Shown here one piece after another: positions 48,340-49,847 of a stretch of DNA of 64,000 nt (position 1 is its first letter; each line of letters opens with the position of its first letter). A model generated the notes under the pieces. The model had not been told where the DNA came from and searched no databases. It saw only the letters and a program-made list of their open reading frames with translations. The translations under genes were made by a program, and so were the position numbers. Origin of the DNA: an uncultured candidate division Zixibacteria bacterium. GTDB taxonomy: Bacteria > Zixibacteria > MSB-5A5 > UBA10806. The stretch covers positions 1,440,001 to 1,504,000 of the forward strand of contig CAWDFP010000006.1 of the NCBI GenBank assembly GCA_963801605.1. The letters are read 5' to 3'.

Positions 48340-48664
48340 ATGACAGCAAAGAAATTTCTTCATCATCCATTCAAAGGGCCTTACTGATAAAGCCAACGAA
48401 CTGGCAGGCAGGCTTCGCGCTGACGGCCATGAAGTTTATGTGCCCGGAATCCAAACCAAGCAGGACACCGATGAGCTCACCATCTGCACCGCCAATCGCG
48501 AGGCAATGAGCCGCGCTGATGAGGTTCGCGTCATTTGGGATGGCACCTCGCATGGCGTGATTTTCGATTTGGGTATGGCCTTTGCCATGAACAGACCGAT
48601 CAAGCTCGAATATGTAATCCCCAAATCGATGAAGGGATTGATGGAACGCTTAAGCGGTGAATAA
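48340..48664 (+). CDS. Nucleoside 2-deoxyribosyltransferase-like small protein; +1 frameshift near 48356
   Basis: Corrected sequence MTAKKFFIIHS...LRADGHEVYVP...NREAMSRADEVRVIWDGTSHGVIFDLGMAFAMNRPI. Confidence 0.65.
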
Positions 48665-48679
48665 TAGCCAGGAGCAATT

Positions 48680-49063
48680 ATGAAACGATTACTTGTTGAT
48701 AAAATTCGCAATGCATCGACGGCATTCATGTTTTCGATTGTGGCGGCATTAATAATTGTTTCCTTATTTAATTGCAGTGATAAAAAGATTATTACTGAAA
48801 CTCCGCCCGGTATACTATTTGGGATCGTTACTGACAGCGTCACTTCGGCGCCCATTGAAAGCGCCGCCGTTTATCCTTATAATATCAACTCCGTGCCCAA
48901 ATATACCGATAGCACCGGCTATTATGCTTTTCCGCTGACACCCGTAAACGGAGTCAATGTCACTTGTTTGAAGCCCGGCTATATTGGCAAATCTTCTCTG
49001 TGCAATATCGTCTCTGCCGAATCGACACGCGTTGATTTTCAAATTGCGCCAATTTCTAAATAA
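48680..49063 (+). CDS. Lipoprotein with carboxypeptidase-regulatory-like domain
   Basis: AGGAG RBS; SLFNC lipobox; G.VTDSVT.API..A.V, TDSTGYY, KPGY. Confidence 0.75.
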   Translation: MKRLLVDKIRNASTAFMFSIVAALIIVSLFNCSDKKIITETPPGILFGIVTDSVTSAPIESAAVYPYNINSVPKYTDSTGYYAFPLTPVNGVNVTCLKPGYIGKSSLCNIVSAESTRVDFQIAPISK

Positions 49064-49183
49064 GATTCTCTTAATTATTATCTCCAATAATTTTTCTCTG
49101 CCTGACAAACTAATTATTAAAATTGTAAACGTCTTTTTCCGTCTTGACATCCGGGCCATTGAGAACTTAATTAGAGCGAAAAC

Positions 49184-49257
49184 GCGGGAGTAACTCAGTT
49201 GGCTAGAGTCACAGCCTTCCAAGCTGTTGGTCGCGGGTTCGAACCCCGTCTCCCGCT
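49184..49257 (+). tRNA. tRNA-Gly(TCC)
   Basis: GCGGGAG/CTCCCGC acceptor, ACAGC-CTTCCAA-GCTGT, GGTTCGAAC; has its own TTGACA(49144)-17-TTAATT promoter. Confidence 0.95.
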
Positions 49258-49280
49258 TTTAAAATCTACAGAAAATTTAA

Positions 49281-49535
49281 ATGCCATTCTACGTTTACAT
49301 TTTATTTAGTCAAAAAGATAACAACCTTTATATTGGCCAAACCGGAAATCTGCCCGGGCGGCTCAAAGCGCATAATGAGGGACATGTATCTTCTACTAAG
49401 AATAGAAGGCCGCTAAAGTTGGTTTATTGCGAGGAGTTTGAAACCAGAACGGAAGCTATAAAACAAGAACACCATCTTAAAAGCCCATCCGCGAGAGATT
49501 TCAAACGAGATCTGAGGAGCAACTCAGTTGGCTAG
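49281..49535 (+). CDS. Small stand-alone GIY-YIG nuclease
   Basis: FYVYIL.S......YIGQT.NL..RL..HN.G....T..RRP..LVY.E......A...E..LK. Confidence 0.92.
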   Translation: MPFYVYILFSQKDNNLYIGQTGNLPGRLKAHNEGHVSSTKNRRPLKLVYCEEFETRTEAIKQEHHLKSPSARDFKRDLRSNSVG

Positions 49536-49600
49536 AGTCATCCATCTGGATTGGTCGCGGGCCCATTTTGGGTCTTGAGATTCGAACCCCGTCTCCCGCT
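49513..49600 (+). pseudogene. Remodelled duplicate of tRNA-Gly(TCC)
   Basis: Identical D-arm (AACTCAGTTGGCTAGAGTCA), TGGTCGCGGG and TTCGAACCCCGTCTCCCGCT. Anticodon arm is replaced by ATCCATCTGGAT; 19-nt insert before the T-loop. Confidence 0.9.
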
Positions 49601-49847
49601 TTTTTATATACAAGAGCAATTTTACTTCAAGCGTACCAAAAGGGTGTTATTAATGACCATAAAAGAAACTCTTGGTGTTTGGTCATATTAAATTGCTTAA
49701 AAATACAGAAAATTTAGTGAATTTATATCAGGGCTAAATTGGCGATTTGATACGGCTTTTGCAAGAACCGGAACGCCAGTGGTTTACAAGCTAAAGCAAG
49801 CACTCTGCCAAAACCTAAAAAATTTAAAATAAAATCCAAAATTCCCC

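Follow-up and report, generated by a model that had tools for sequence, protein, structure and literature searches.

In the 64,000-nt window (the whole stretch of DNA analyzed here), a gene for a small GIY-YIG nuclease is lodged between an intact tRNA-Gly(TCC) gene and a broken copy of the same tRNA, in which the inner anticodon arm has been exchanged for a 10-nt hairpin, here called the plug. Homologous genes adjoin tRNA genes of many isotypes and are patchily present among close relatives, and we consider it very likely that they constitute a real tRNA-lodged cassette of selfish origin. We propose its mode of movement more tentatively, leaning on the precedent of the Ssn nucleases: the protein may bind the plug hairpin in single-stranded DNA (ssDNA) and nick beside it, after which host recombination would carry the cassette into a tRNA gene.

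Anatomy of the locus

The gene order in the window is Thr(TGT)-Tyr(GTA), two small open reading frames (ORFs), Gly(TCC), Thr(GGT), and tuf. The intact tRNA-Gly(TCC) gene (positions 49184 to 49257, plus strand) is the sole Gly(TCC) gene of the assembly and the landing site of the cassette, and it is the likely source of read-through transcription. Consistent with the initial annotation, the 84-amino-acid (aa) nuclease ORF (49281 to 49535, plus strand) begins 23 nt downstream, behind an AT-rich spacer made up of the tRNA trailer and the ORF leader (49258 to 49280, plus strand), and its TAG stop codon (49533 to 49535) is the D-loop TAG of the tRNA copy. The two had been described as fused; in fact, only the stop codon and the D-loop overlap, and the junctions vary in relatives. 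A promoter scan found TTGACA at 49144, with no –10 element called after it. The two small ORFs between tRNA-Tyr and tRNA-Gly (48440 to 49063) encode a 74-aa protein weakly similar to nucleoside deoxyribosyltransferases, which is also present in the related genome G004, and a 127-aa carboxypeptidase-regulatory-like protein, which was not seen before Gly in G004.

The tRNA copy had been placed at 49513 to 49600. It is present, and similarity starts at 49516 (49516 to 49600, plus strand); the 5' acceptor strand is eroded, and four of the seven acceptor pairs are left because the first three bases (from 49513) mismatch the tRNA. The D-arm, variable loop, T-arm, and 3' acceptor strand, thought to be kept exactly, are identical to the local tRNA save for a single T>C change at tRNA position 8. 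The reported swap of the anticodon arm for ATCCA-TC-TGGAT is real as well, but the outer A/T is the tRNA's own first anticodon-stem pair, so that the exchange is one of 15 nt for 10 nt and the plug proper, in place of the inner anticodon arm, is TCCATCTGGA (49541 to 49550, plus strand). A 19-nt insert with two mini-hairpins was found where it had been noted, immediately 5' of TTCGAA (49562 to 49580, plus strand). The T run behind the copy (49600 to 49605, plus strand) is possibly the 3' end of the transcript; it was not called as a terminator, and a plus-strand search 3' of the copy called none. No Rfam family was called for the copy, which lacks the cloverleaf fold (z of 0.55 versus –1.90 for the intact tRNA).

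The 13-bp direct repeat that had been taken to bracket the unit is real (49267 to 49279 and 49704 to 49716, plus strand), but its left copy lies in the spacer between the tRNA and the ORF, that is, inside the unit and not at its boundary. A repeat that long arose in 50 of 3,000 shuffles (4 of 3,000 in a targeted test); this one occurs only twice in the whole genome, and in 238 other loci, including the empty site of G004, it had no exact match and eight matches with one mismatch. Given the inner position of the left copy and the lack of an exact match in these loci, the repeat was rejected as a target-site duplication or element boundary, and the unit lacks the insertion-sequence feature of a bracketing direct repeat that is single in empty sites. 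Some relatives carry the tRNA trailer a second time behind the copy, with all of its 26 nt matching in G241 and G015, so the repeat may be a relic of an older duplication, its second copy probably being a remnant of the duplicated trailer, or else a product of chance.

The nuclease

The 84-aa protein matches the Pfam GIY-YIG family PF01541 (E value of 3.8e-18), which places it in the superfamily, and has all of the catalytic residues (Y6, Y17, G19, R27, H31, and E63); an alignment of 28 homologs shows no variation at Y6, L8, Y17, G19, and R27 and a conservation of 90% or more for H31 and E63. Its sequence matched 1ywl in phmmer (E value of 7.6e-7), and Foldseek searches with the predicted structure (pLDDT 95) returned UPF0213 1zg2 (E value of 2.3e-4), Slx1 6seh (TM score of 0.69), and I-TevI (E value of 0.47). 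Judged by its sequence and predicted fold, the protein belongs to the minimal prokaryotic Slx1-like/UPF0213 group, nearer to Slx1 and UPF0213 than to UvrC and I-TevI. The stand-alone Slx1-like/UPF0213 proteins (PDB 1zg2 and 1ywl) are its best sequence and fold matches and share its minimal domain without auxiliary parts. They are regarded as probable repair proteins, and, unlike for the cassette, linkage to tRNA genes is not mentioned for them in the relevant passages of the source (PMC1564403).

With its one domain, the protein lacks a DNA-binding domain and thus the C-terminal module of the homing endonucleases SegB and I-TevI (its TIGR01453 score is 19.5 bits versus a cut-off of 56), and with a fold of the Slx1 type it is not the classical homing endonuclease that had been suggested. 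Its phage homologs are also weak (best E value of 2e-7, identity below 45%), which, together with the poor I-TevI match, further separates it from those enzymes. Among the 13 pairs listed of the 55 formed by 11 Gly-linked ORFs, pN is 0.11 to 0.35 and pS is a near-saturated 0.66 to 1.0, indicating purifying selection on the ORF. The genome under study (G000) has one other GIY-YIG match, a 97-aa gene between inverted NTS/SRM-like hairpins (contig C4, 5778 to 6159), which is likely an Ssn element and which we take to carry the cd10448 label. This paralog and the 84-aa nuclease fall in separate clades (SH-aLRT 100/99).

tRNA linkage, broken copies, and plugs

Protein matches at an E value of ≤1e-8 occur in 125 of 285 genomes of the phylum, more distant GIY-YIG types included. 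We sampled 90 loci from the 206 matches (the top 30 and 60 from further down the list, our own locus among them), and 69 of the 90 have an intact same-strand tRNA within 450 nt of the gene (57 of 69 when full flanks are available), against a chance level roughly estimated, rather than computed, at about 1%. The survey of homologs that the initial annotation had proposed as a check thus bears out tRNA targeting; 21 of the 90 loci have no tRNA nearby. In named genomes of other groups, the linkage holds at 29 of 80 loci (24 of 67 with full flanks). The tRNAs used include Gly, Ala, Val, Asp, Ser, Met, Asn, Thr, Glu, Pro, and Ile, gene and tRNA are co-oriented in the loci counted, and the linked hosts include Bacteroidota, Nitrospirota, Acidobacteriota, and Thermodesulfobacteriota. 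Unlinked rows of Bathyarchaeia, Bacillota, Chloroflexota, and Proteobacteria mostly form one separate branch of a quick tree, and UPF0213-like rows lack tRNA linkage.

At Gly(TCC) loci, the gene is present in 16 of 38 inspected, a rate biased by loci fetched for the gene. The family of the genome under study, f1, contains both occupied sites (G000, G002, G003, and G006) and, with full flanks, empty ones (G004, with a plain Thr-Tyr-Gly-Thr order, G008, G009, and G013), so that related genomes do hold the empty site that had been looked for, and occupied and empty alleles coexist among relatives as they do for homing endonucleases. Conserved vertical inheritance, which had been weighed against a mobile element, is contradicted by this patchiness, but a T-arm insert common to the four occupied members speaks for long vertical inheritance. 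The tRNA-Gly(TCC) gene itself is inverted relative to Thr(GGT) in G002 (L111), far from it in G013 (L118) and G008 (L121 and L122, two copies), and located between Thr(TGT) and Tyr in family f8; the loci that show these changes of place in the lineage further comprise L113 (G003) and L133, L136, and L143 (G237, G241, and G029). In G009 (L114, contig C7, 5' of tRNA-Thr GGT), a 3' tRNA-Gly fragment behind the end of a putatively integrase-like ORF on the opposite strand is probably a conventional att site belonging to a different element that uses this tRNA.

The arrangement of the unit varies. The order tRNA-gene-copy is that of the locus under study, copy-tRNA-gene-copy is found in G002, G003, G006, and G237, and copy-gene-tRNA is found in G032 and G061, with G023 and G017 also counted as this order; there are tandem units (G015, G017, and G023), decayed ORFs (G029 and G061), and a tRNA-copy pair without nuclease (G247). 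Downstream copies retain the 3' half and lack the 5' strand, upstream ones retain the 5' half, in most cases only as far as the T-stem, and near-complete copies exist in G237 and G247. Common to the copies is a core of D-arm 3' strand, plug, variable loop, and T-stem 5' strand, which matches 23 places in 15 of 285 genomes (a reversed control matches 3 places in 2 genomes), 13 of the 15 having the gene at the locus; since the pattern was built from the same loci, this count is no independent evidence.

An automatic search found plugs at 36 of the 90 phylum loci and 10 of the 80 others. They fall into two classes, short (CC-N3/4-GG core) and long (TCCCGA..TCGGGA). Among 43 plug-labeled rows of a quick tree on which kin share labels (169 rows, being 170 less one duplicate; 86 columns; no bootstrap), the class changes once, compared with 10 to 19 times in 300 shuffles; the tRNA isotype changes 10 times on the same tree, indicating several switches. 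A 59-row quick tree places all 21 short-plug proteins in a single clade (SH-aLRT 96). The class is not fixed by the amino acid (long at Ala-GGC, short at Ala-CGC and Ala-TGC), and it is not determined by the host, because G006 holds a short plug at Gly and a long one at Asp. The plug CCCGTACGGG is shared by Gly(TCC) in G032 and Ala(CGC) in G257, G250, and G260, as well as by a Gly copy of G257, and the nucleases of these loci form one subclade (support 94). At L227 (G257, contig C115, 8756 to 8875), where the contig ends, two tandem Gly copies have different plugs, one of them identical to the plug at the Ala(CGC) locus of G257.

The 10-mer TCCATCTGGA recurs in Gly copies of three other families (four in all), while synonymous divergence is close to saturation. 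In the plug stem, 94% of cells are paired and three of five pairs show compensatory changes, the structure being derived from the same sequences (21 of 39 pattern rows were used; 7 false matches, 5 short or mis-registered rows, and 6 near-duplicates were excluded). Plug borders coincide with the anticodon-arm junctions. The lesions recur in independent genomes, and the earlier view of localized palindromic replacements, not random decay, is upheld. The plugs, on one or both sides of the gene, covarying and concordant with the protein tree, thus amount to enzyme-specific flanking hairpins as in Ssn.

Short hairpins were also surveyed genome-wide. The short plug is not clearly enriched (12 occurrences versus 6 expected; 273 versus 268 for a looser pattern), and its candidacy as a genome-wide REP is therefore unsupported. 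The D-arm/plug junction has some likeness to CGTC/NTS tags, a lead that was abandoned since the bases 5' of the plug vary among isotypes; CGTC repeats have no dedicated transposase, and the passages describing them do not contain the term GIY-YIG (PMC3733652). The genome under study has a REP-like family (GGGTTCCGC-hairpin-GAAATCC) of 39 copies with 17 convergent pairs and exchangeable inner hairpins (e.g., C6:620083, C6:1149535, C6:1830529, and C8:39043), none within the window; among the inner hairpins are the long-plug type TCCCGA..TCGGGA and also GTCCAATTGGAC, similar to short plugs of relatives. Other strongly enriched hairpin arms (GTCAGG, 36 versus 2 expected; GTCGGG, 19 versus 1; GGGGCG, 18 versus 1) suggest further REP families.

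The remaining bases of the copies mostly follow the tRNA allele of their own locus. With the lesions set aside, 15 of 27 copies are nearest their own allele, 8 are tied, and 4 are nearer another allele. The T-arm insert is limited to f1, where 17- to 18-nt counterparts of diverged sequence sit at the same position in G002, G006, and G003, and its two mini-hairpins resemble each genome's own plug type; lineages outside f1 have other T-loop lesions or none, and the T-arm is intact in many copies (G237, G253, and G015). Despite this common insert, the four f1 downstream copies differ from their own tRNA alleles by 0, 0, 0, and 1 mismatches, which suggests that they have exchanged sequence with the intact gene more than once. 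Between the two lesions, the 10-nt island agrees with local alleles as well.

Possible modes of movement and related systems

Ssn proteins are described as single-domain GIY-YIG nucleases that bind their flanking hairpin only in ssDNA, by sequence as well as structure, and cut a few nucleotides upstream, and a mobile origin has been proposed for them (passages of PMC11893778). The cassette resembles them in its single-domain GIY-YIG gene of about 90 aa and in short flanking palindromes that differ from enzyme to enzyme; SsnA requires two Tyr residues and a Glu, to which Y6, Y17, and E63 correspond by numbering, not by alignment (PMC11893778). Unlike Ssn (cd10448), the nuclease stands outside the clade of the genome's own Ssn-like paralog, by which membership was judged, and the hairpins lie inside tRNA copies in direct orientation, whereas those of Ssn are inverted free flanks (PMC11893778). 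The main text of that paper has no match for the word tRNA.

By analogy, the plug would be the hairpin that the nuclease recognizes, which seems more likely than a cleavage-resistant site, and we infer the following course. The nuclease would be expressed by read-through from the tRNA promoter and would recognize the plug; since the intact tRNA has no plug, the essential gene would be spared. Because tRNA sequence flanks the plug on both sides, the nicked end could pair with an intact tRNA gene on a sister chromosome or in a recipient. A crossover 3' of the anticodon arm would then yield tRNA-gene-copy, as at the locus under study, and one 5' of it copy-gene-tRNA, as in G023, G017, G032, and G061, the tRNA being rebuilt in either case. 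The expected end products are seen, namely tandem arrays, copies on both sides, local-allele copies, empty sites, and nuclease-free relics. Nicking at the plug would account for the intact tRNA beside the nuclease, the conserved plug, and both gene orders.

On the sequence evidence, tRNA linkage, plug-class concordance, stem covariation, allele tracking, and the Ssn precedent seem to favor this course. Against it stand the protein's position outside the Ssn-like clade, the four copies that fit another allele better, the loci without a nearby tRNA, and the presence of plugs at only 36 of 90 loci; moreover, simple long-tract conversion does not explain the local-allele match of the 10-nt island, and the proposed course does not account for the precise first entry of a plug into a new isotype. 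Concordance between plug and nuclease is no proof of recognition, because kin share labels and no sampled isotype has both classes, and because the short plug is very small (2- to 4-nt loop) and not clearly enriched, its recognition would have to draw on flanking tRNA bases. Since clades mostly keep one isotype and the T-arm insert is f1-wide, movement must be rare, with inheritance for the most part vertical.

The main rival, a homing-like course in which the nuclease cuts the intact tRNA gene and the plugged copy serves as an immune allele and a second homology arm for gap repair, appears unlikely to us. SegB cuts within tRNA genes with a preference for a T-loop motif and drives segmental amplification (passages of PMC2330249 and PMC13096335), and both folded-ssDNA junctions (Slx1-type) and the T-arm motif (as for SegB) are candidate cut sites; the nearest solved folds (UPF0213 and Slx1), the plug edges at anticodon-arm junctions, the recurrent T-loop lesions, and nuclease clades that follow tRNA isotype would all fit. 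However, many genomes keep an uncut intact tRNA 7 to 200 nt from an intact nuclease gene, many copies have an intact T-arm, the nuclease has no DNA-binding domain, and immunity would be possible without conserving a single palindrome throughout isotypes and phyla. The cleavage-resistant role first suggested for the copy is likewise weakened, since a resistance allele need not keep one palindrome across saturated synonymous divergence. It is quite improbable that the cassette was once mobile and now has a host role, such as restricting incoming ssDNA at tRNA integration hotspots, with the copies as recombination by-products: purifying selection, long residence at one isotype, and the modulation of transformation by SsnA in Neisseria (PMC11893778) agree with domestication, but empty sites occur in close relatives, order and copy number vary, some ORFs have decayed, relics without the nuclease exist, and the tree shows several isotype switches.

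Still more doubtful is a role at the RNA level, with plugged copies transcribed as tRNA mimics (anticodon-nuclease decoy, antitoxin, or processing signal) that would control the nuclease or shield the host tRNA. The neat replacement of the anticodon arm with its stem kept and the near-complete copies of G237 and G247 are compatible with it, and selection on RNA structure could produce the local-allele match of the short island; the copy here, with four acceptor pairs, a broken T-loop, no cloverleaf fold, and no Rfam call, is not, nor are upstream copies that stop at the T-stem and downstream copies without a 5' strand, and SsnA does not bind RNA (PMC11893778). The decoy and 3'-processing roles offered in the initial annotation lose ground because the copy lacks the cloverleaf fold and the upstream copies of relatives lack the 3' half. 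Contigs from four runs (best DNA share of 0.10) reached the tRNAs and flanks alone and none covered the unit, but three same-family genomes (G002, G006, and G003) carry both lesions at the same positions in diverged sequence, and the plug pattern recurs in 15 of 285 genomes, so that misassembly, or neutral decay of a duplicated tRNA, has only a negligible likelihood.

Nicking at the plug thus remains the preferred course, and it also differs from other systems at tRNA genes. Integrative elements that target tRNA genes land there, rebuild the gene, and leave a partial duplicate. The cassette shares the landing sites and the partial duplicate, but unlike them it is about 350 bp long, duplicates either the 5' or the 3' part, plugs the duplicate, and, as originally described, is integrase-free: nothing but the 84-aa ORF separates the tRNA from the copy, where such elements have an integrase between attL/attR duplicates. 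SegB, a free-standing GIY-YIG homing endonuclease of T4/T6, adjoins tRNA genes of many isotypes as the cassette gene does, and its nuclease-driven, recombination-dependent tandem amplification can be likened to the cassette arrays; unlike the cassette protein, it is a phage double-stranded DNA homing enzyme cutting intact tRNA genes, and the descriptions in the relevant passages include no plugged copies (PMC2330249, PMC13096335). The cassette would seem to work most like Ssn/SRM in a setting shared with SegB, and on the features compared it belongs to neither. In the literature covered, mostly main texts of papers free of subscription, we found no description of tRNA-lodged short GIY-YIG genes with plugged copies.

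If this interpretation is right, it would give a function to very common "hypothetical" GIY-YIG genes, explain the broken tRNA copies that adjoin them, and reveal a spread without integrase or transposase that leaves an essential target intact. The locus is a good test case, having an intact ORF under selection and a plugged copy and intact tRNA side by side, and the natural nuclease-plug pairs of relatives permit swap tests. Enzymes of this kind could also add to the small sequence-specific ssDNA nucleases that Ssn represents. It is conceivable, with less confidence than for the nicking itself, that such cassettes form a new class among the smallest autonomous mobile elements, at about 350 bp, comprising an 84-aa nuclease with its own hairpin tag and tRNA landing pads and no integrase. 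Were this true, every clade of the nuclease would amount to a compact ssDNA nickase paired with a 10- to 20-nt tag of its own, and in uncultured bacteria these enzymes might be responsible for the spread of short palindromes such as TCCCGA..TCGGGA to tRNA arms and other hairpins.
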